Shown piece by piece: positions 45,046 through 59,092 of a stretch of DNA of 64,000 bases (position 1 is the first letter of the stretch; every line of letters starts with the position of its first letter). The translations under genes were made by a program, and so were the position numbers. Source of the DNA: Pirellulales bacterium (lineage in GTDB: Bacteria > Planctomycetota > Planctomycetia > Pirellulales > PALSA-1355); the NCBI GenBank assembly GCA_963733035.1, contig CAVTBU010000006.1, forward strand, positions 160,001 through 224,000, in the 5' to 3' direction. The notes under the pieces are model-generated. The model was not told the DNA's origin and searched no databases. It saw only the letters and a program-made list of their open reading frames with translations.

Positions 45046-45261
45046 TCAGGTTGTGCGGTAGGGAGGTCGGGCGCTTCGTCGGAAACGTCCGGCAAGCAAA
45101 ACACCGGCGGGGAGCGATGCGATGGAGAGCGCCCAACTCGACGGCTCCGGAATCTGTGCGATCCATGCTTCCGTCTGTCCGTTCGGGTTGAATCCAGTGC
45201 CGGTAATCGTGTGTCCGTCGGCCGAGACTCCCCAGGCGATAGTCAGCTCCCAATGACTCAG
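45046..45261 (-). pseudogene. Orphan C-terminal fragment of a PEP-CTERM (exosortase-target) protein
   Basis: WELTIAWGVSADGHTITGTGFNPNGQTEAWIAQ-IPEPSS, hydrophobic stretch, RFRR; no start or RBS of its own. Confidence 0.75.
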
Positions 45262-45290
45262 CGCGATCGCCCTCGCGAGCGGTGCAGCAG

Positions 45291-48200
45291 TTATCGGTTG
45301 AACAGGAACGCAGGGCTGTTGATCAGTGCCCACGCAAGATCCTGCGCCGGTCAACCGGACGTTCTTTTGTTGCTCGGCGGCACTCGTGACGGCGTCGCGG
45401 AGGCGAACCCACTGGGTATCGAGCGAGCGGTGATATTCGGTCACCTGGGCTCGCAAGTCCGCTCCACGCTCCTCGGGTTTGATGGCCAGAATCTGCGCAA
45501 TGTTCTCCGGCAGGCTCGATGCGCCCGCGGGCGACGGACTGGCCGAGACTGCGAAGCGAAACTTGCCGATCGTGTGCGTTTCGTCGTACTGATGGTCGAG
45601 CGTGACGACCAATAGCGAGGGCGCATCCAAGTTTAGCGGCTCTTTGAACTCAAACACCGCGGAGTGGTTCTTGCCGAACTCGGGAGCGACAGCCCAGCCC
45701 GTACCGGGGTTTCCGTCGACGGCTCCGGCCACGGCGTAACCCTCCTGCGAGAAATCGGCCATGTTGGCGCCGAACTCGACCGGCTTGGTCTGGCTTGCAT
45801 CGGACGCCGGAGCGATGGTGGCTTTCAATTCCGAAAGCACGAGATTGCCATTGGTGGCGCGTCCCGGACCATGCGCGGGTAGTTTGTCGTCGGCGAGCAG
45901 CTCGAGTCGGAGCCCCGTCAACGGACCGGCCGGCACGGGCAGCGTGACCGTGTAGGTGCCCTTGCCGTTGCTCCCCTCGACGAGCACCGAATGATCCGCC
46001 TGTTTTGCGAAGGTGGCGTTCATGCTGGATTGCATTGCGCCGGGCTTGAGCGTGGTCCAGGTGGGAGCGACTTGGGTCGATTCCCACGCGGCCTGCTTCT
46101 CGTCGAGTTGCTTCTGGTGGGCGTTCAGTTTGCTCTGCAGTTCAAGCACTTCGCCGGCGCTGGCATGCAGGGCCGCAATGCCGGTGGTGATCTCCTCCGG
46201 CTTGGCGGGCCGATTGAGAATCCTGAGGAATAACTCGTTGACCACCTTCGCGTCGTCCGACTCGGCGGCGACAAGTTTGGTGATCGCATTCTCGGGGTTG
46301 GCAATGGCATCGGCGATGGTCGGGCCGTTGACGAGCGTCATCACGGGGCCCAGCATCATGCCGCTCGAGCGTTCACATTCGCACGCGCTTTCACGCGCCG
46401 GCCGTCCGAAGACTTCGAAGAAGCCGCTGGGGAGCGACAGTCCGACGTCGGGAAGTTGTGTGGCCCGATAACCGACTGGTACACCCGGCAAGCTGCTCTG
46501 CGAACCGGTGACTCGCTGGATCGTGTCGTATAGCACTTCGGCCGGCAGGCGGCGGGCCACGGCGTGCGAATAGTTGATCGTGTCGTCTTCATTCCAGCGG
46601 TTCGTCTCAAGCGAAAGCTGATAGGTGCGCGACTTGCAGATCAGCTTCAACACGTGTTGCATGTCGAAACCGCTATCGACAAATTCGCGGGTCAGGTAGT
46701 CGAGCAGTTCCGGATTCGTCGGCGGGTTGCCAGCGCGGATGTCGTCGATCGGTTCGATGATGCCGCGGCCGAACAGATAGCCCCATAGCCGATTGACGTA
46801 GCTTTTGGCGAAGTACTGGTTTTCCTTGGACGTGACCCAGCGGGCCAGTTGTTCGCGGCGCGACGCCTCCTGGCTCACGGCATCCGGGAGTTCATAAGGG
46901 AACTTGGGCGCTGCCGGCTGGCCGGTGCCTCCGTGAGTGACTTCGCCCGAACCGGTGTCGAAAATATCCTCAACCAGTGGGGCGCCACCTTCTACTGCGG
47001 TCTGACCGATGGTCTTGCCGTCGGCGGCGGGGTCGGCCTTGCGACCAACCTGGGCAAAGTACGCGGCCAAATGAAAATACTGCCCCTGCGTCCAGCGTTC
47101 GAAGGGATGATCGTGGCAGTGGTTGCAGTTGAAACGCACGCCAAGGAACAACTGCGTCGTGTTTTCCATCAGCTCTTCGGGCGTGCGAAGCACTTTGTAG
47201 TAGGCTGCCGGTGGATTCTCGAGCGTGGAGCCGCTGGCCGTGAGGATGGTGTACACGAACTTGTCGTACGGCATGTTCTGCGAAACGGCCTGCTTGATCC
47301 AGCCGCGCAGAGCGAATGCGCCTTCCTCGCCCAGGAATTTGCGATTCACCTGCAGCAGGTCGCTCCACTTGTTCGTCCACAACTCGACGTAGTCGCCGCT
47401 GCCCACGAGCTGGTCGACCAGTTCATCGCGTTTGACCTTCGCGTCGCGCTCGTCGGCGACAAAGGCTTGCACCTCGTCAATCGTGGGGGGCAGGCCAACC
47501 AGGTCGAGCGAAACGCGGCGAATGAATTCGGCGTCGGTGCACAACTCGCTTGGCATCGACTTCACTCGCTTGAGTTTGTTGTCGACCAGTTCGTCGACTG
47601 GATTGTTGACCGGCACGTCCTGCCACTCGTAGCCGCTGCGGTCGCCCATAATGGTAAGCGTGCTGGCGGTGTAGGCGCCCTCGAAGCGGGCTAGCACCGG
47701 GGCCTCGCCGCGGCGAATGGCTGTGATCAGTCCCGACTTGTTCGGTTCGGCCACTTCGGTGTTGCCACTCTCGATGAAGGCTTCCAGCGTTACGTCGCGC
47801 ACCGAGCCGTCGCTGTAACTGGCCAGTACGCTCATCTGCTGGGTCATCTCCGGCAGCGGCACGATCGGGTTCTTGGGGAAAATTTCGATCGACGTCACCC
47901 GGGGGCTGTCGAGGTCGAGCTTCAGACCGTCGGCAATCCAGGCGCGGATGGTCTCGTAGTAGGGTTCGCCGGGCTGAGTGAGCACGCCGCCGACGTGCGG
48001 GATGACGCCCGACGGCTTCAGCAGCATCAGGCTTTGATCGGGGGCGGCCCGATTGATGCGCCGGCCGGCCACGTCGTCGGTCAGTGCACGATGATCGAAC
48101 AGCGGGTCGTAACCGCGCAGCGAGAGCTTGAAGCCCCCCTTGCCGGCCAGCGAGCCGTGGCAGGTGCCGGCGTTGCAGCCGAGCTTGGACAGCACGGGCA

Positions 48201-48603
48201 TCACGTCGCGCACGAAGCTCGGCTGGAACTTGGTTGTCTGGCCGGCTACGGTCAGCGGCACGGCAATGGATTTGTCGCCGAGCGAAAAGGTGACTTTTCC
48301 TGCGCCGTCTGTTTTGGGGCGAACCAGTAGCGACGGCGAGACCGAGGCCAGATCATTTTCGACCGTCGACTCGACCATTCGCGTCGCGTCAAGCGAAGAG
48401 CCATCGGACAACTTGGCCGTGATGAGGACCTGCGAGTAGGCGTACTTGTGGTCGAGATTGAGCGCCGCGGGTTGGGCTTCCAACGAAACGACCTGCGCGC
48501 CTGCGGGCAGGTGCTCGGTGGGAGCGGCCACAACGGAACTGCTCACCAGCGACGACATCCCCACGACCAGAACGATTGCCAGCCAGTTTCGCTTCATACC
48601 CAT
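45291..48603 (-). CDS. DUF1549/DUF1553 (PSCyt2/PSD1) planctomycete cytochrome c-type protein with Ig-like domains (frameshift at ~45345)
   Basis: Signal peptide; CNAGTCH, GFKLSLRG, CNHCHDHPF, ACECERS; canonical end (A)QDLAWALINSPAFLFNR* in the shifted frame. Confidence 0.92.
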
Positions 48604-51287: not shown

Positions 51288-51851
51288 TCACAAATGCGCA
51301 TGGCGACCGACAAGCTTCACCGTGCTCGCCTGAGGGCCCTTTTCGCCCAGTTCCTCGACATAGGTCACTTCGGTTCCCACGACAAGTCGGGCAAACTCGC
51401 CGTTGACCAGGCTATTGGCATGGAAGTAAATCTCCCGACCGTCGGGCGTGAGGATGAAGCCGTAGTGGCTGCCGGCAAACAGTCGCGCGACGCGGGCATG
51501 AGGAAGCGGCTGATGATGCTTAACCCGCGCCTTGCGCTGGCGAACGAAGTCTTCCAATTGCCGGGCCGCGGCATCGAAGGCATGTGCCAGGGCGACGTTC
51601 AGATCTGCGTGTTCCGGCTGTTGAGAGGGTTCGCGGTTGACGACGATTTCGCGTCCCGGAACCGTCAGATCGATTCGGACCTGGTACAGGTTGCCGGTTG
51701 CGTGCTGCCGATGCGGCATGTCGAGCACCACGCGGCAGGCAACGATCCGATCGTAGAGACTCTCGAGACGGGCCAGATGCTGTTCGACGTTTTTGGCGGT
51801 TTTGTTGGAATGGGGCACACTGCGAAACGCGATTTGCAGCGGAGTTTGCAT
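51288..51851 (-). CDS. HPF/RaiA (S30EA) domain fused to a cold-shock domain
   Basis: MQTPLQIAFR...IVACRVVL...VRIDLTVPG...AFDAAARQL; YGFILTPDGREIYFH...GEKGPQAS. Confidence 0.9.
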   Translation of the reverse strand: MQTPLQIAFRSVPHSNKTAKNVEQHLARLESLYDRIVACRVVLDMPHRQHATGNLYQVRIDLTVPGREIVVNREPSQQPEHADLNVALAHAFDAAARQLEDFVRQRKARVKHHQPLPHARVARLFAGSHYGFILTPDGREIYFHANSLVNGEFARLVVGTEVTYVEELGEKGPQASTVKLVGRHAHL

Positions 51852-52043
51852 GACGGCTCCTGAACAGGGCGCGATGGGAAGTAGCCGGGGCGAGAATTGA
51901 TCGCGGCCAAAGCCCCGCAAGCGCGCCCCGCTACGGATCTCGCGGCAATGGCGAGACCACCTTATATTCTAGGGCAGCCGCACGGCGGATAGCGGCCCGG
52001 TTGTTCAACTCGCTCTGGCTTGAGAAACGAAAGGGGGAGAACC

Positions 52044-52625: not shown

Positions 52626-52743
52626 GCCGCTTTACGGCGGTGTGTACTTGCTTCAACCGACTTGGCGGATGAAAATACATCCCGGCTGGCCGCGCTCATC
52701 AGTTTCCGCGCGCGAAAGCGAATTTGCCGAAGGACGATCACCC

Positions 52744-53363
52744 GTGTTCGACGCCGACGCTTCCCTCTCGGACACCGATTTGATGGCCCGCGTGCAACGC
52801 GGCGAGACGGAATTGTTCGCCCAACTCGTCGCGCGTTACGAGGCGCCGTTGCGCCGGTGGCGCGCAGTCGGCTGGGACGTGCGGACTGGGCGGACGACGT
52901 CGTGCAGGAGACGTTTTTGGCGGCGTTCAAGTCGCGAAGGACGTACGACGCACGTTTCAGCTTTCGCACCTGGATGTGGACGATTTTGCTTCGTCAGTGC
53001 CACGGGCACTATCAACGCCGGCAGCGCAGCATTTTGGTCGAGCCTCACTGGCCCGAAGATCACGAGCTTGCCAAGAACAGTGGAGCCGACGGCACGCCGC
53101 TTGCTCAACTGTTGGCGAAGGAGCGGTCGGCGCAGCTTGAGCTGCTGCTCAAGCAACTGCCGCTTTCGCAGGCCGACGCTCTCCGGCTACGTTTTTTTGG
53201 GGAACTGAAATTTCACGAAATCGCCGATGCCATGCAGTGCAGTCTGAACACGGCCAAGAACCGCGTTCGCTCGGGGCTGATACGCATGGCGGAGCTACTT
53301 GAGTCGACCAGCCTGTCTGGAGTGCGGGGTGGGTCGCATCAGCAGGAGTCTGCCGAGTCATGA
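52744..53363 (+). CDS. ECF-type RNA polymerase sigma factor (frameshift at ~52858)
   Basis: DTDLMARV...FAQLVARY; ADDVVQETFL, FRTWMWTI (region 2); LPLSQADALRLRFF.ELKFHEIA...TAKNRV (region 4); start approximate. Confidence 0.9.
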
Positions 53364-54070
53364 ATTGTGATCAGGTTTTCGACATCCTTACCCGCGGCCC
53401 GTTTCCCACCGGCACCTCGTGCGACGTTCACGTTGAGGCTCATTTGAGCGAGTGCCCCGAGTGTCACCGTCTTGCCGAGGCATTGCGGCCGGCGGTGGAG
53501 TTGTTTCAAGAAGCCGTGGATCCGGAGGAGAGCCGCGACCTGCCGGGATATTGGTGCGCCGTTTCCACCGAGCGGCAGAGTCCCGCGCTGTCGTATGCGC
53601 GCGAAGTCGAGTCCCATGCAGTTGCGCCACAAGTGGAGACCAATGCACCGGCGCGGCATTTGTCGGCGCTGAACATGTGGCGCATGGCCGCCATGTTGGC
53701 GATTGGCATCACGACCGGAACGCTGTTGGCCACGGGCGGCTTGAACGGCTACTGGCCGCCCAAGAGCCTCAGCGGGGCGCTCGCGCCCGCCGCGCCCAAT
53801 GACCAAACGCCGCGCGTGACGCGCGCCGATTGGATGGAGTTGGCCTCGTTGCCGGCGGCCTGTTATCGGCACAAGCCCGACCGCACCGCTCGATATCGGT
53901 TGCGAGACGATCAGTTGCTGGCCAGCGCAAACTTGGAGAACCTTAGTTGTTGCTCGGGCTGCCACAATGCGGCGTCCGATAAGGTGCCCAGTTCGGCAAC
54001 GGTGAAAGTCTCGCGTAGTTGTCAGCATTGTCACGCGGAAGCGACCGAGCACCTGATCTCCGCCCGCTAG
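53360..54070 (+). CDS. Anti-sigma factor: ZAS/zf-HC2 domain, TM helix, C-terminal domain with two CxxCH motifs
   Basis: MNC...HLSECPEC (HxxxCxxC); TM MAAMLAIGITTGTLLA; CSGCH and CQHCH; ATGA overlap with the sigma gene stop. Confidence 0.85.
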   Translation: MNCDQVFDILTRGPFPTGTSCDVHVEAHLSECPECHRLAEALRPAVELFQEAVDPEESRDLPGYWCAVSTERQSPALSYAREVESHAVAPQVETNAPARHLSALNMWRMAAMLAIGITTGTLLATGGLNGYWPPKSLSGALAPAAPNDQTPRVTRADWMELASLPAACYRHKPDRTARYRLRDDQLLASANLENLSCCSGCHNAASDKVPSSATVKVSRSCQHCHAEATEHLISAR

Positions 54071-54246
54071 CCGTCCTGCCTTGCGAGTCGGCATTTCGCC
54101 CGCGTTCTGGCGAGGGCAGCATTTACAGCCGCGCGTCGTGTAGCCACACTGGTAGCTCGCTCGGCGGCCGTGCATCGGTTGGCACCGGCGCGAGCGATAC
54201 GACACTTTGAGATTTGCTTCCTAAGAAGAAACGCGGGAGACACACC

Positions 54247-54912
54247 ATGAAGAAATTGTTCACACCAGCGGCCATGCTATTGGCGATCGCAGCGCTGGCC
54301 GTATCGACCAGTTCGGCTCTGGCCGATGATGAAGGAGCGGGCTGGATCAGCTTATTCGACGGCAAGTCCCTCAGGGGCTGGCAAGCCAACGAAAACTCCC
54401 AGCAGTGGAAGGTCGAAGACGGCAAGATCGTGGCCTCCGGCCCGCGCAGCCACCTGTTTTACGTTGGCGATGATCCCGACCATCCGCCGCAGTTCGAGAG
54501 TTTCCACTTCAAGGCCGACGTAATGACCACGCCAGGTAGCAACTCGGGCATCTATTTCCATACCGATTGGAACGAGGAAAAGAAGCACCACCGATTCCCG
54601 CAGACCGGCTTTGAGGCGCAGGTCAACAATTCGCACACCGACCCAGTGCGGACGGCCAGCATCTACCACCTGAAGAAGAACTTTGTGCCGCCGGCCAAGG
54701 ACAACGAGTGGTTTACCGAGGAGATTGTCGTCGACGCCAAGCAGAAGACGATCAAAACATACGTGAACGGCAAGCTGATCGAGGAGTATCACGAGCCGCC
54801 AGGCAAGACCGGTGCGCTGGAAGTCCTCGGCAAGGGAACATTCGCCTTCCAAGCCCACGACCCCAAGAGCACGACGTACTACAAGAATATTCGCGTCAAG
54901 AAGTTGGATTAG
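54247..54912 (+). CDS. DUF1080 (3-keto-disaccharide hydrolase-like) secreted protein
   Basis: Signal peptide; GWISLFDGKSLRGW, NSGIYFH, FEAQV, AFQAHD...YKNIRVK. Confidence 0.9.
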   Translation: MKKLFTPAAMLLAIAALAVSTSSALADDEGAGWISLFDGKSLRGWQANENSQQWKVEDGKIVASGPRSHLFYVGDDPDHPPQFESFHFKADVMTTPGSNSGIYFHTDWNEEKKHHRFPQTGFEAQVNNSHTDPVRTASIYHLKKNFVPPAKDNEWFTEEIVVDAKQKTIKTYVNGKLIEEYHEPPGKTGALEVLGKGTFAFQAHDPKSTTYYKNIRVKKLD

Positions 54913-55256: not shown

Positions 55257-56015
55257 ATGCTGAACAAAGTTGTATGCATCGTCGGAGGTGTGTTGGCAAT
55301 CGGCTGTTGGGGCTCCTCGGCCTCGGCCCAACAGGCCGTGATGGATGAGTTTTATGGCACCGGCGTCCACAATTTCTACGACCGTGACTTTTTTCAGGCG
55401 ATGCAGAATCTGTCGGTTGCCATCGACGGCGGCTCGCAGGACCCCAGGGCCTACTACTATCGCGGCCTGGCGCGGATGCGGTCAGGGGATGTGCAAGGTG
55501 CCCATGCCGACCTGCAAAAGGGATCGGCCCTGGAAACGGCCGACGTCGACCAATTTTACCCGGTGGCCAAATCGCTCGAACGGATCCAAGGTTCGGAGCG
55601 CAGCACGTTGGAACGCTATCGGGCGCTCGCGCGAGCGCAAGCACGTCAGCGCCAATTGCGCCGCGACGCGGTGCGTTATGAAGAACGTCGCCGCCATGAG
55701 GCACAGGTCTTGCGTTCGGTACCGGTAGGACCACCGCCTGCCGCGCTTGGTGTCGCTCCGGCCACCGCCGTTGAAGCTCCGGCACCGGCAGACGCGGCGC
55801 CGGCCGCGGCTCCCGCCGCCGCTGCGACGCCGATGCCCCCAGCGGCTGGCTCGCCGTTTGACGCCCCGGCCGGCGCACCTGCCGAAGCGCCCACCGACGA
55901 CCCGTTCGCACCTGCGGCGGATGCTCCGGCCGCGGCTGACGACCCGTTTGGCGCGACGATGCCCGCCGACGATCCGGCAGCCGCGGAGGATCCGTTCACC
56001 GACGATCCGAACTAG
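55257..56015 (+). CDS. Secreted TPR protein with Pro/Ala-rich tail and DDPF repeats
   Basis: Signal peptide; DPRAYYYRGLA TPR; tail with SPFD/DDPF/EDPF motifs. Confidence 0.85.
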   Translation: MLNKVVCIVGGVLAIGCWGSSASAQQAVMDEFYGTGVHNFYDRDFFQAMQNLSVAIDGGSQDPRAYYYRGLARMRSGDVQGAHADLQKGSALETADVDQFYPVAKSLERIQGSERSTLERYRALARAQARQRQLRRDAVRYEERRRHEAQVLRSVPVGPPPAALGVAPATAVEAPAPADAAPAAAPAAAATPMPPAAGSPFDAPAGAPAEAPTDDPFAPAADAPAAADDPFGATMPADDPAAAEDPFTDDPN

Positions 56016-56211
56016 CCCAGGACAAGATTGCCGCGACAACCAACCAAACCAAGATTCACGCCTCGAGGCTTTTCCCGACGAGTCGATACGCTGGCGAACG
56101 GGGAAAGCCACCGGCCGCATTGGCAGCCTTAGTGAACAGGTGGCCGGCGCGGTTGCCCGCCGCCTACGGTTTAGCCTGAACCATCGAGTAACCTCCTGGA
56201 GACGTCACACC

Positions 56212-59092
56212 ATGCTCCGGCACCTGGTGCGTTTCGGTCGTCCCGCGCTAGTTGCGGCGGCCTTCTGGATGATGGCCGCGATTGCCTGGTCGGCACCGCG
56301 CATTGATCGACTTTCGCTGCGGGGCCTGCAAGCCGGTGGGATCACGACCCTGGTGATTGAAGGGGCTGACTTGCTTCCCGAGCCGAAGTTGCATCTCACG
56401 GCTCCGGGCGTCAGCTACCAACTGAAGGATGGCGCCACGCCGCAGCGGCTGGAGGCCGAGTTTACCGTCGACGGCGGTTGCCCGGCCGGAATCTATCTGT
56501 TGCGCGCGGCGTCGGCCAGCGGCATTTCCGAGGCTGCCGCTTTGGGAATTGACAATTTGCCGCAGCTCCCGTTCGCACCGCAGGTGAGCGTGCCGAGCAT
56601 TGCGCTATCGGGCGCTCTGTCCGGAAACCAGGTCTTGTCGACGACGGTCGAGGGAAAGAAGGATCAAAGGCTCTTGGTCGAGGTCGAAGCCCGGCGGCTG
56701 GGATCGAAGCTCGATCCGGTGATTCACGTGTACGACAATCGCCACACGCAGTTGATCTGGAGCGGAGGCCTACCGGCCATTGGCGACGATGCCCGTTGCG
56801 AGGTGACGTTGCCGTCCGATGGCCAGTACACCATTGAGCTGCACGACGCGCTATTTCGCGGCGCCAGCCCCGGCTTCTTTCGTCTGAAGATTGGCGACTT
56901 TCGCTATGCCGATTTGGTGTATCCACTGGCCGTGCAGCAGGGCGTGGCAGCCAAGTTCGAATTCCTCGAGACCAACTTGCCCGCCGACGCGCGAGCCGAC
57001 GCCACGTTGACCCTGGGTGACGGAGTGCCATCGGACGTTCTTCCCGCACCTTGGCCAGCCGAAACTCCTTTGCTGTCCGGAACGCGACCGGCGGTCATCG
57101 TGAGCGATCACGCGGAGATCGTTGAGGCTGCTCCGGCCGACAAAATACAGGAAATTGTAGTGGCGCCCGTGGCGATCAACGGCCGGATTGGCGTTAAGGG
57201 AGAACAAGACCGCTATCGGCTGGCCGTGACGCCGGGACAACAACTGCGATTTGACGTCCTGGCGCGTCGCGCGGGCTCAGCGCTAGATGGCGTGCTCTCG
57301 ATCCAGAAGGAAGACGGAGCCGAACTAGCCACGAACGACGATCGACCCGGCACGAGCGATCCGGGACTCGACTTCAAAGTTCCGGACGGCGTTAGCGCCG
57401 TTGTGGTGGCGCTGCGCGATTTGTATGGCAACGGAGGTGCCGAACACGTGTATCGCATCGCCATCGACGTGGCCGGTTCGCCGGACTTTACCCTGTCCAT
57501 TGCCAGCGATCGCGCTTTGGTGCCGAAAGACGGCTCGGCGCTCGTTCGCGTGCTCGTCAAACGCGCCGGCTATCCGGGACCGATCGATCTCAAGTTTCCC
57601 AATCTTCCGCCGAGCGTTTCGATTACGGGCAATCAGATTCCCGCTCGGGCCAGCGAAGCACTAGTGACGCTGAGTGCGCCAGGACTCGCTCCGGTTCAGT
57701 CCGTGACGTCCGTGGTGGGAGCGAACGCGGGCGAGAAGGTATCCATCCATCGGCGCGGAGGTGCCCGGGGGCGAGGTTGCCAAGGACCAACCGTGGCTTG
57801 GCGACTCATTGGCGGTCGCCGTGACGGTGCCCAGCCCGATCCAGCTCACCTGGGATCTGTTGGCCAGCGACGCCAAACTGATGCAGGGCTCGAAGCTCGC
57901 GAACAAGGTGCGCCTGCAACGTGCCGAGGGAGTGAAGGGGGCGGTGCGGCTCTCGCTGCTCACGACGCAAAAAATGCCGCGCAAGAAGATTAAGGAGAAC
58001 AATCAGGAGCGCGAGGTCGACGACGTGGAGCGAGCCTTGCGATTTGACGGGGCACCGACGATTGCCGCCGATCAAGCGGAGGCGGCACCCGCGATCACCG
58101 TGCCCGGTGATTTGCCGCGCATCGACTATGACCTGGCCATTCAGGCCGAACTACTGGGAGAAGATAACAAGACCGTATTGGCGACGGTTGTCACTCCGGC
58201 CCGACGCTTGACGACGATTCCGCCGGTCACGGTGGAACTGGCAAGTAAGGCTCTCGAGGCCCGCGCCGGCGCCGGCCCCACGGGCCGCGTCACCGGCAAG
58301 ATCGTGCGGGAGCCTGGTTTTGCGCTGCCGGTTAATGTTACGCTTGCCGGCCTGCCGGAGGGGCTGACGGCTCCGACCGTCACCTTGGCGGCGGATCAAT
58401 CGGAGTTTGATTTCCCCGTTAACTTTCCCTATGGAACCGCGGCGGGTGAACTCAAGAACGTGAAGATGTCGGCCATCTGTCTCAACGATCCGGCGGATCC
58501 GAAGACGGTCGTCTTCACCGCGGCGTTGGATCTGCCGGTGACGGTCGTGCCCGGCAGCAAACCACCCGAGCAGCCGATGGTAATCTTTGAGGATCAACCG
58601 GAGTTCGTGGCCAACCTTAATCAGGGAGGCGGCCAGGCCTCGCTTGATAGCGAGCAGAAGTACTCCGGCACGGCCAGCGTAAAGGTGACACCCGACCAGC
58701 GATTCAATCCGGCGCTGCCCGGCTTGGGCATCAAGATCCGAGAGAATCCCGGGGCGGGCGAATATCGCTATTTGCGTTTCGCGTGGCGGAAGCAGGGAGG
58801 ACAGGCAATTTGTTTGCAACTCAATCACGATGGCCAGTGGGGGCCGACTGACGGCAAATCTGCCAGCTTCCGCTACCACGCCGGACCAGCCGGACCGTGC
58901 TTCGGCGCTTCGCTGGCGATCGATGCCGCGGTGCCCGAAGAGTTCGACGTGGTGACACGCGATCTGTTCGCCGATTTTGGCGAATTCACGCTGACCGGGA
59001 TCGCACTATCCCCGGTCGACGGCGATTTCGGCCTGTTCGACCATATATACCTGGGCAGCAGCGTCGACGATTTCAAGCTGGTGAAGCCGTAG
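56212..59092 (+). CDS. Secreted planctomycete PPC (pre-peptidase C-terminal) repeat protein (frameshift at ~57758)
   Basis: Signal peptide; EVEARRLGSKLDP, INGRI...DRYRL, ARRAGSALD...NDD..DP; RR(A)EVPGG joins the two frames. Confidence 0.88.

Follow-up and report, generated by a model that had tools for sequence, protein, structure and literature searches.

Pairs made up of a sigma factor of the extracytoplasmic function (ECF) type and its anti-sigma factor form a major signalling route in bacteria, and the signal to which most of them respond is unknown; Planctomycetes are especially rich in ECF sigma factors of unknown input. In the zinc-binding anti-sigma (ZAS) factors the sensor part takes quite different forms: a cupin in ChrR, cytoplasmic thiols in RsrA and a protease-trimmed ectodomain in RsiW. 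Here we describe an ECF sigma/anti-sigma pair at positions 52744-54070 of a 64,000-nt stretch of a Pirellulales genome (contig CAVTBU010000006.1 of assembly GCA_963733035.1, positions 160,001 to 224,000; hereafter the window). On balance, and with some reserve, we read its anti-sigma factor as a single-pass membrane protein with a cytoplasmic ZAS-type domain, one transmembrane helix and a predicted di-haem sensor outside the membrane. An earlier note on this DNA had proposed a transducer of this kind; the architecture it described (ZAS-type N-domain, single helix, outer pair of CxxCH motifs and coupling to an ECF sigma factor) stands, while the sigma gene, which it took to be unbroken, is interrupted in the window (see below).

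The sigma stop codon and the anti-sigma start codon overlap in an ATGA at 53360-53363. Everything that the earlier note had listed for the anti-sigma open reading frame (ORF), namely this overlap, the HLSECPEC motif, the transmembrane helix, CSGCH, CQHCH and two extra cysteines, was found where it had been placed (Table 1). The outer tail is about 100 residues long, and its end module consists of a cysteine, about 29 residues, CCxxCH, 18 residues and a second CxxCH. At the other end of the protein, the AlphaFold2 (AF2) model of the N-domain has helices at residues 3-12, 20-31, 33-42 and 46-50, with a predicted local distance difference test score (pLDDT) of 81-93.

Of the 905 relatives of the anti-sigma factor that a clustered protein collection holds at E<=0.001, those with a name are all annotated as hypothetical, and precomputed Pfam domains are lacking throughout. 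Searched for exhaustively with HMMER, the family comprises 592 clusters at 50% identity, and 452 of these reach E<=1e-10. Scanning genomes, we located 127 anti-sigma-family loci, all in metagenome-assembled genomes of Planctomycetota (Pirellulales, Lacipirellulaceae, Pirellulaceae) except for one bin labelled Chloroflexia, and 31 of the 41 related genomes, the source genome counted in, have a family match. Judged from these sequences, this is a large family of Pirellulales without a name.

Conservation was followed in two alignments (n=33 and n=124), in 264 fetched members and in 242 full-length members. Nine residues (H28, C32, C35, C198, C201, H202, C221, C224 and H225) are invariant in 33/33 and 124/124 aligned relatives, while at least 90% retain C3, C168 and C197, and residues 1-65 are near-invariant across the family; among 123 distant representatives C168 is kept in 98%. 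HxxxCxxC is present in 263/264 fetched members and a pair of C-terminal CxxCH motifs in 244/264, the remaining 20 being mostly short or C-terminally divergent. Conservation of both CxxCH motifs in homologs, which the earlier note had named as a check on its proposal, is thus borne out, and because they are so conserved the motifs lie far beyond chance. Among the full-length members, 238/242 keep both C168 and C197, 205/242 have their CxxCH motifs 23-24 residues apart, and in 114/242 the protein ends no more than two residues past the second motif. When the outer tail (residues 150-236) was searched against proteins of 414-2000 aa, no other architecture appeared at E<=0.01, which is weak evidence.

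Two distant members (at our loci L080 and L092) have lost the first cysteine of the CC pair, and the one at L080 is also without the lone cysteine. This joint loss would fit a role of the two extra cysteines as a pair.

Coupling of the anti-sigma gene to an ECF sigma gene, the second check that had been named, is strongly conserved too. An intact ECF sigma gene lies directly upstream in 11/11 close loci, and among 49 more distant loci with two CxxCH motifs (drawn from the best 80 of the 127 genome loci) 44 have the family sigma directly upstream on the same strand. As for the other five, sigma and anti-sigma share one open frame at L039, L082 begins at a contig end, and at three loci no sigma was detected with the sigma profile at E<1e-5. 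The protein has two of the marks of a ZAS class I factor: HxxxCxxC with an upstream candidate ligand, and a gene that stands beside its ECF sigma gene.

Exactly one hydrophobic segment is found in 242/242 members, with a KD19 value of at least 1.6 in 198/242 and a second-best segment that never reaches 1.6. Lysine and arginine average 2.75 in the 15 residues before the helix vs 1.29 in the 15 after it (242 members). Since the N-domain should meet the cytoplasmic sigma factor, and given this positive-inside bias, an N-in/C-out topology with the tail outside the membrane is supported by the sequences. A cytoplasmic C-terminus, which the earlier note had given as an outcome that would overturn its proposal, is accordingly not what the single segment and the charge bias point to.

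The source genome encodes, on contig C10, ResB (45.5 bits) and CcsA (96.2 bits) domains fused in a single open frame of 1227 aa, that is, a CcsBA protein. Such fusions are System II cytochrome c synthases, which attach haem to exported CxxCH motifs. Two features expected of a c-type cytochrome, CxxCH motifs on the outer side and a maturation system in the genome, are present. Moreover, a profile search of the Protein Data Bank returned c-type cytochromes only (best E 5e-4), and the nearest named Atlas clusters to residues 140-236, taken as language-model neighbours, are NapB, c3, c7 and NrfB-like cytochromes with scores of 0.75-0.77. Both CxxCH motifs fall in predicted helices of the AF2 model. 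Taken from such sequence comparisons, attachment of haem to the outer module is predicted, and we consider it fairly probable.

If haem is attached, its ligation would be unusual. In the outer part of the distant representatives every other histidine or methionine column stays below 30%, and 24/242 members have fewer than two other histidines and methionines beyond residue 125, so that bis-His or His/Met ligation cannot be general. This leaves the two extra cysteines as the sole candidate distal ligands. Because no distal histidine or methionine is conserved and yet the two extra cysteines are kept, the haems would probably be His/Cys-ligated or five-coordinate. His/Cys haem proteins such as TsdA, SoxAX and DsrJ have low potentials and labile ligands. 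Ligation of this kind would suit a sensor, by redox-linked ligand switching or by binding of NO, CO, O2 or sulfide, better than an electron carrier.

Put together, the proposed mechanism would run as follows. Residues 1-70 would form a ZAS class I domain that holds the sigma factor in the cytoplasm, residues ~103-128 would cross the membrane once, and CcsBA would most likely make a c-type domain with two haems out of the outer module. The sigma factor might then be released by a change in this domain, either through regulated proteolysis of the anti-sigma factor or by a change passed through the helix; proteolysis is possible given that Peptidase_M50 (site-2) proteases are encoded in the source genome. 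A more specific form of the proposal, which we put forward tentatively and regard as doubtful, is that the two extra cysteines give both haems His/Cys(thiolate) ligation, and that reduction, or attack by sulfide, NO or an oxidant on the thiolates, switches the ligation, unfolds the ~60-residue module and frees the sigma factor. If true, this would be the first anti-sigma factor with c-type haem, and would open a new class of extracytoplasmic sensors for redox state or gases, one widespread in Pirellulales.

The small size of the module also admits a different use of the haems. With about 29 residues per haem, and an end that often coincides with the second CxxCH, the module is so small that it should need its haems in order to fold, and the tail might then report haem supply or cytochrome c maturation: left without haem it would be unfolded and degraded, the anti-sigma factor would be cleaved and the sigma factor freed, so that iron or haem shortage or damage to maturation turns the regulon on. 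The want of a confident fold in models made without the cofactor agrees with a stability that depends on haem, and CcsBA and M50 proteases are both encoded. At the same time, the conserved neighbours in the 49 loci include no gene connected with haem, iron or cytochrome biogenesis, and the two conserved extra cysteines would be left unexplained. We think it unlikely that haem supply is what the tail reports.

Several results weigh against the reading of the protein as an anti-sigma factor with a di-haem sensor, and we set them out here and in the next three paragraphs. The cytochrome matches of the window protein lie below Pfam cut-offs (Cytochrome_C7 18.4 vs 24.8; Paired_CXXCH_1 14.2 vs 20.6), as do all those among the 124 aligned members (48 weak Cytochrome_C7 matches, best E 1.8e-4; 33 to Paired_CXXCH_1, best E 8.8e-4). 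The outer domain is modelled poorly by AF2 (pLDDT 63-70; 63.2 when modelled alone), and neither in the whole model nor alone did it match a solved fold; since good models can hardly be expected for a fold that depends on haem when the cofactor is left out, this tells nothing about fold novelty. Finally, two CxxC motifs about 19 residues apart are also a zinc-ribbon pattern. The outer cysteines and histidines might thus bind no haem at all, and the six cysteines and two histidines of C...CCxxCH...CxxCH might instead hold a metal (Zn, Cu or Fe) in a zinc-ribbon-like site or make disulfides, with which the protein would sense periplasmic metals or thiol oxidation in the way of Cys-based anti-sigma factors. 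Besides the spacing, the sub-threshold cytochrome matches and the missing distal ligand, this would be in keeping with a faint match to the FmdB zinc ribbon (E 0.79), with likewise faint DnaJ_CXXCXGXG and Zn_ribbon_ACC matches in 2/124 members each, and with the joint loss of both extra cysteines at L080, as for a disulfide pair. On the other hand, the histidine after each CxxC is invariant in all aligned members, and haem c attachment needs this histidine, whereas a Cys4 ribbon can do without it; helices rather than knuckle turns are predicted at both motifs; the module would lie outside the membrane, where CcsBA works on CxxCH; and the profile and language-model neighbours are all c-type cytochromes. 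We therefore regard a metal or disulfide site as rather unlikely.

The N-terminal half has its own difficulties. The window protein has no zf-HC2 (PF13490) match at E<=1 in Pfam, although 51/124 members match this family weakly (best E 6.2e-4), in each case under its Pfam cut-off. A Foldseek search with the whole AF2 model gave no match at E<=0.001, its top row being ChrR (2z2s_D) at only E 3.1, and the VIA comparison gave no Z>=5 (all Z <=3.7), with RsiW, RslA and MucA among many tied rows at Z 3.4-3.5. These rows from model searches are consistent with an anti-sigma domain but are not proof of one. Moreover, 25 loci (for example L037, L042, L052, L056 and L088) encode a short paralogue of 135-138 aa that is 69-77% identical to the N-domain over residues 1-65 and has a C-terminal membrane anchor without the outer tail. 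No sigma gene was found within 4 kb of it in these 25 loci; at L049 (L049:4001-4408) it adjoins rsfS and argS. Five of the short-paralogue genomes have no orthologous sigma, with best profile scores of 70-81 bits vs 223-376 for sigmas adjacent to an anti-sigma gene. Because the short paralogue stands apart from sigma genes, even in genomes without an orthologous sigma, the conserved N-domain may, judging by its sequence, have a partner besides the adjacent sigma factor.

Upstream of the sigma gene, the candidate promoter listed in Table 1 looks housekeeping-type by its sequence. The same promoter-like arrangement is seen upstream of sigma in close loci, and a regular-expression search matched it in 17 of the 24 loci where the N-terminal sigma motif could be placed. 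In the source genome the strict pattern occurs only twice, and a search of that genome for a regulon by promoter motif gave neither an ECF-type autoregulated promoter nor a target set. Looser forms of the pattern mostly match an intergenic repeat. This repeat, of ~170 nt, has five near-identical copies, all outside the window (C4:356536, C5:2628715, C6:921716, C6:937895 and C10:190475), with hairpin-forming stretches and a sigma-70-like TTGCTT, 17 nt, GAAAAA(T); it may represent a family of small-RNA genes or else a small mobile element.

The sigma gene itself is split in two. The earlier note's ECF identification of 52744-53363 is sound, with Sigma70_r2 (E 5e-12) and Sigma70_r4_2 (E 7.8e-9) in the 3' piece, a TIGR02937 score of 72.7 bits vs a cut-off of 42.9, and a family sigma profile that gives the 3' piece 300 bits over profile positions 32-204; its single open frame, on the other hand, is broken where a G is short. 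NF009166 matches the two pieces in order, continuing at positions 43-189 in the second, and is the best of the NCBIfam subfamily and equivalog models, none of whose cut-offs is reached by the sigma (102 bits vs 206). The sigma factor has sigma-2 and sigma-4 domains only, which is the domain content of the ECF (group 4) sigma factors, and its orthologues are 201-214 aa long; a single intact reading frame is what the window copy lacks. Its GTG start lies 12 codons ahead of the LMARV motif, as in 8/11 relatives, and the stretch LRR VARSRLG is in one frame in 11/11 loci of related genomes.

We compared the window with contigs of four soil-metagenome runs, none of which spans the full stretch. A 266-nt contig from run X3 covers 52630-52894 with five mismatches (98% identity, depth 2.7) and has an extra G behind 52855 that restores the frame. 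Some 5 kb downstream, the gene of a PPC-domain protein has a frame break as well, near 57750-57773: a single ORF at locus L013 matches 56179-57750 in frame 1 and continues over 57773-58891 in frame 2. No other copy of the sigma was found in the source genome, where the profile score drops from 300 bits at this locus to 76 bits for the runner-up; this genome is 92% complete in 10 contigs. Given the extra G in the near-identical contig, the second frame break and the absence of another sigma copy, the break is most likely an assembly indel in the G run. Programmed frameshifting at 52855 was also considered and rejected, since relatives read through in one frame and the additional G is there in the near-identical contig.

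A genuine frame break would leave the pair inactive in the source strain, as a decaying pseudogene pair with a real deletion in sigma and an anti-sigma gene that is a leftover. The break is indeed present in the window and in the whole assembly, there is no other sigma to take over, and the intact form comes from one low-depth contig whose five mismatches might mean another strain. Such decay sits poorly, however, with an anti-sigma gene and two sigma pieces that are otherwise intact, 63-74% identical to close relatives and free of further stops. That the missing letter is a G in a G run, that a second conserved gene 5 kb away is likewise frame-broken, and that the genome stands at its present completeness in ten contigs form the pattern expected from indel errors. 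A pseudogene is in our view improbable here.

Coordinates of the pair and of the genes around it are collected in Table 1.

Table 1. Features of the ECF sigma/anti-sigma locus and its surroundings (window positions)
Feature	Position	Strand	Basis or detail
PSCyt2/PSD1 ORF	45046-48603	-	Pfam
S30AE/cold-shock fusion ORF, 210 aa	51288-51920	-	Pfam
Sigma-70-like promoter candidate: CTTGCTTC, 16-17 nt, GAAAAT	52647-52676	+	between FMN reductase gene and sigma start; consensus match only
ECF sigma factor 5' piece, residues 1-38 (region 2.1), GTG start	52744-52857	+	NF009166 positions 5-36; family profile 2-39
Frame break, one G short in G run	52855-52857		relatives read ..LRR VARSRLG.. uninterrupted
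ECF sigma factor 3' piece: rest of sigma-2, linker, sigma-4	52857-53363	+	Pfam, TIGR02937, family profile
Single-pass anti-sigma factor candidate, 236 aa	53360-54070	+	ORF and family alignments
Putative zinc site of ZAS domain: C3, H28, C32, C35	53366-53464	+	HxxxCxxC = HLSECPEC, 53441-53464
Predicted transmembrane helix, residues ~103-128	53666-53743	+	sole hydrophobic segment; AF2 helix 103-124, pLDDT 91-96
Lone cysteine C168, predicted periplasmic, L-P-x-x-C context	53861-53863	+	conservation
CCxxCH (CCSGCH): extra cysteine C197 and first putative haem-c attachment motif C198, C201, H202	53948-53965	+	CSGCH itself 53951-53965
Second CxxCH (CQHCH): C221, C224, H225, close to C-terminus	54020-54034	+	conservation
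Secreted 3-keto-disaccharide hydrolase (DUF1080) domain protein	54214-54912	+	Pfam E 2.2e-36
TPR-like secreted protein, furthest-persisting neighbour	55257-56015	+	weak TPR matches
Large secreted PPC-domain protein, split in two frames	56179-58891	+	PPC domain E 6.8e-6

The redox proteins that the earlier note had pointed to in the neighbourhood are there: by Pfam, we find an FMN reductase (FMN_red, E 4.5e-41), a thioredoxin-like 2Fe-2S ferredoxin (E 3e-6), a PSCyt1+WD40 protein and a PSCyt2/PSD1 protein. As an argument for function they are weak, with the FMN reductase in 14/49 loci and the ferredoxin in 20/49, both limited to closer relatives. The TPR-like secreted protein is in 23/49 loci, the large PPC-domain protein in 19/49 and the DUF1080 protein downstream in 19/49, in counts limited by 4-kb flanks and contig ends; the TPR-like and PPC-domain proteins persist to distant loci, and the DUF1080 protein does so less often. 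Such neighbour evidence of function is weak in general, because close relatives share gene order by descent, and a link between the DUF1080 protein and the sigma factor can only be supposed from this.

Two further ORFs of the window, both on the minus strand, deserve mention. The 210-aa ORF at 51288-51920 fuses a Ribosomal_S30AE domain (E 4.7e-9), the domain of ribosome hibernation factors, to a cold-shock domain (CSD, E 3.4e-9). In the PSCyt2/PSD1 ORF an unusual low-complexity stretch is followed by a tail that resembles a PEP-CTERM sorting signal, which may reflect another frame error or a genuine fusion.

A full-text literature search found no paper that describes a haem-c anti-sigma factor. 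In the parts of the main text and supplement consulted, the 2021 reclassification of ECF sigma factors (PMC7826278) has subgroups from Planctomycetes (ECF213s4/s7, ECF276s8) whose anti-sigma factors have one helix or a zinc finger, and mentions neither haem nor a cytochrome c domain on any anti-sigma factor. The earlier note had allowed that the pair might turn out to be a described ECF group; within the texts searched, including those parts of PMC7826278, no described group has such a tail.

The conserved pair of outer CxxCH motifs suggests an undescribed coupling of extracellular redox or gas sensing to gene expression. Should the module be loaded with haem, it would give a concrete input (redox, a gas or sulfide, or haem supply) to a family of hundreds of clusters from soil and water Pirellulales. 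Sensing by haem c, known with chemoreceptor and kinase outputs, would if this is true be extended to direct control of a sigma factor. A domain with ~60 residues for two haems, and cysteines as the sole candidate distal ligands, would then also be of interest to haem-protein chemists.

A zinc-finger anti-sigma domain combined with a c-type haem domain may also be present in an unrelated case from another phylum. An Atlas cluster from Acidobacteriota (79 proteins of ~280 aa, score 0.82) has Cytochrome_P460 in 100% and zf-HC2 in 53% of its members; its P460 domain has ~150 residues and one haem. We found no paper on this combination in the literature search. As a lead only, the cluster hints that fusions of haem c to anti-sigma factors arose more than once.

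In the SigF/NrsF pairs an ECF sigma factor is likewise held by a membrane anti-sigma factor, with oxidative or metal stress as the signal, sensed by the outer part of the anti-sigma factor. NrsF differs from the protein described here in being a multi-pass DUF1109 (PF06532) protein without a ZAS motif or CxxCH. PMC3884062 was considered as a precedent and rejected, as the CXXCH motif described there is on a protein other than the NrsF anti-sigma factor.

The likeness of the outer module to small multihaem cytochromes c (NapB, c7/c3, Paired_CXXCH_1) is limited to the spacing of the motifs, two CxxCH 23-24 residues apart in a tiny outer domain, and the matches between the two are weak. In such cytochromes a distal histidine gives bis-His ligation. 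Here, in contrast, a distal histidine is not conserved, two cysteines are the only other conserved outer residues, and the matches stay below the cut-offs.

As for the principle of sensing, the module resembles the Geobacter PAS-type haem-c sensors and the Cache_haem receptors, periplasmic sensor domains of chemoreceptors and related receptors in which single-pass or two-pass signalling proteins use covalently bound c-type haem outside the membrane to sense redox state or gases. The PAS and Cache receptors have one haem each and outputs through methyl-accepting chemotaxis proteins, HAMP domains or kinases, while the outer module described here has ~60 residues with two CxxCH motifs and two extra cysteines, no recognisable fold and an anti-sigma domain as its output. 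Two sources bear on such receptors, a review of Geobacter chemotaxis (PMC8396549) and a report of NO binding by a Cache_haem receptor (bioRxiv 10.64898/2026.05.25.727664).

The N-terminal half is closest to the ZAS class I factors ChrR of Rhodobacter sphaeroides, RsrA, RslA and RsiW. It shares with them HxxxCxxC with a putative fourth ligand ~25 residues upstream (C3), a short N-domain that is predicted to be helical, and a gene directly after and overlapping the ECF sigma gene; the single-pass topology is that of RsiW and RslA. Unlike these factors, it has no significant sequence or fold match to solved anti-sigma domains, and its N-domain is near-invariant, which is unusual for such domains. 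Where ChrR, RsrA and RsiW each have the sensor part named at the outset, the sensor part here would be the module with two CxxCH motifs.

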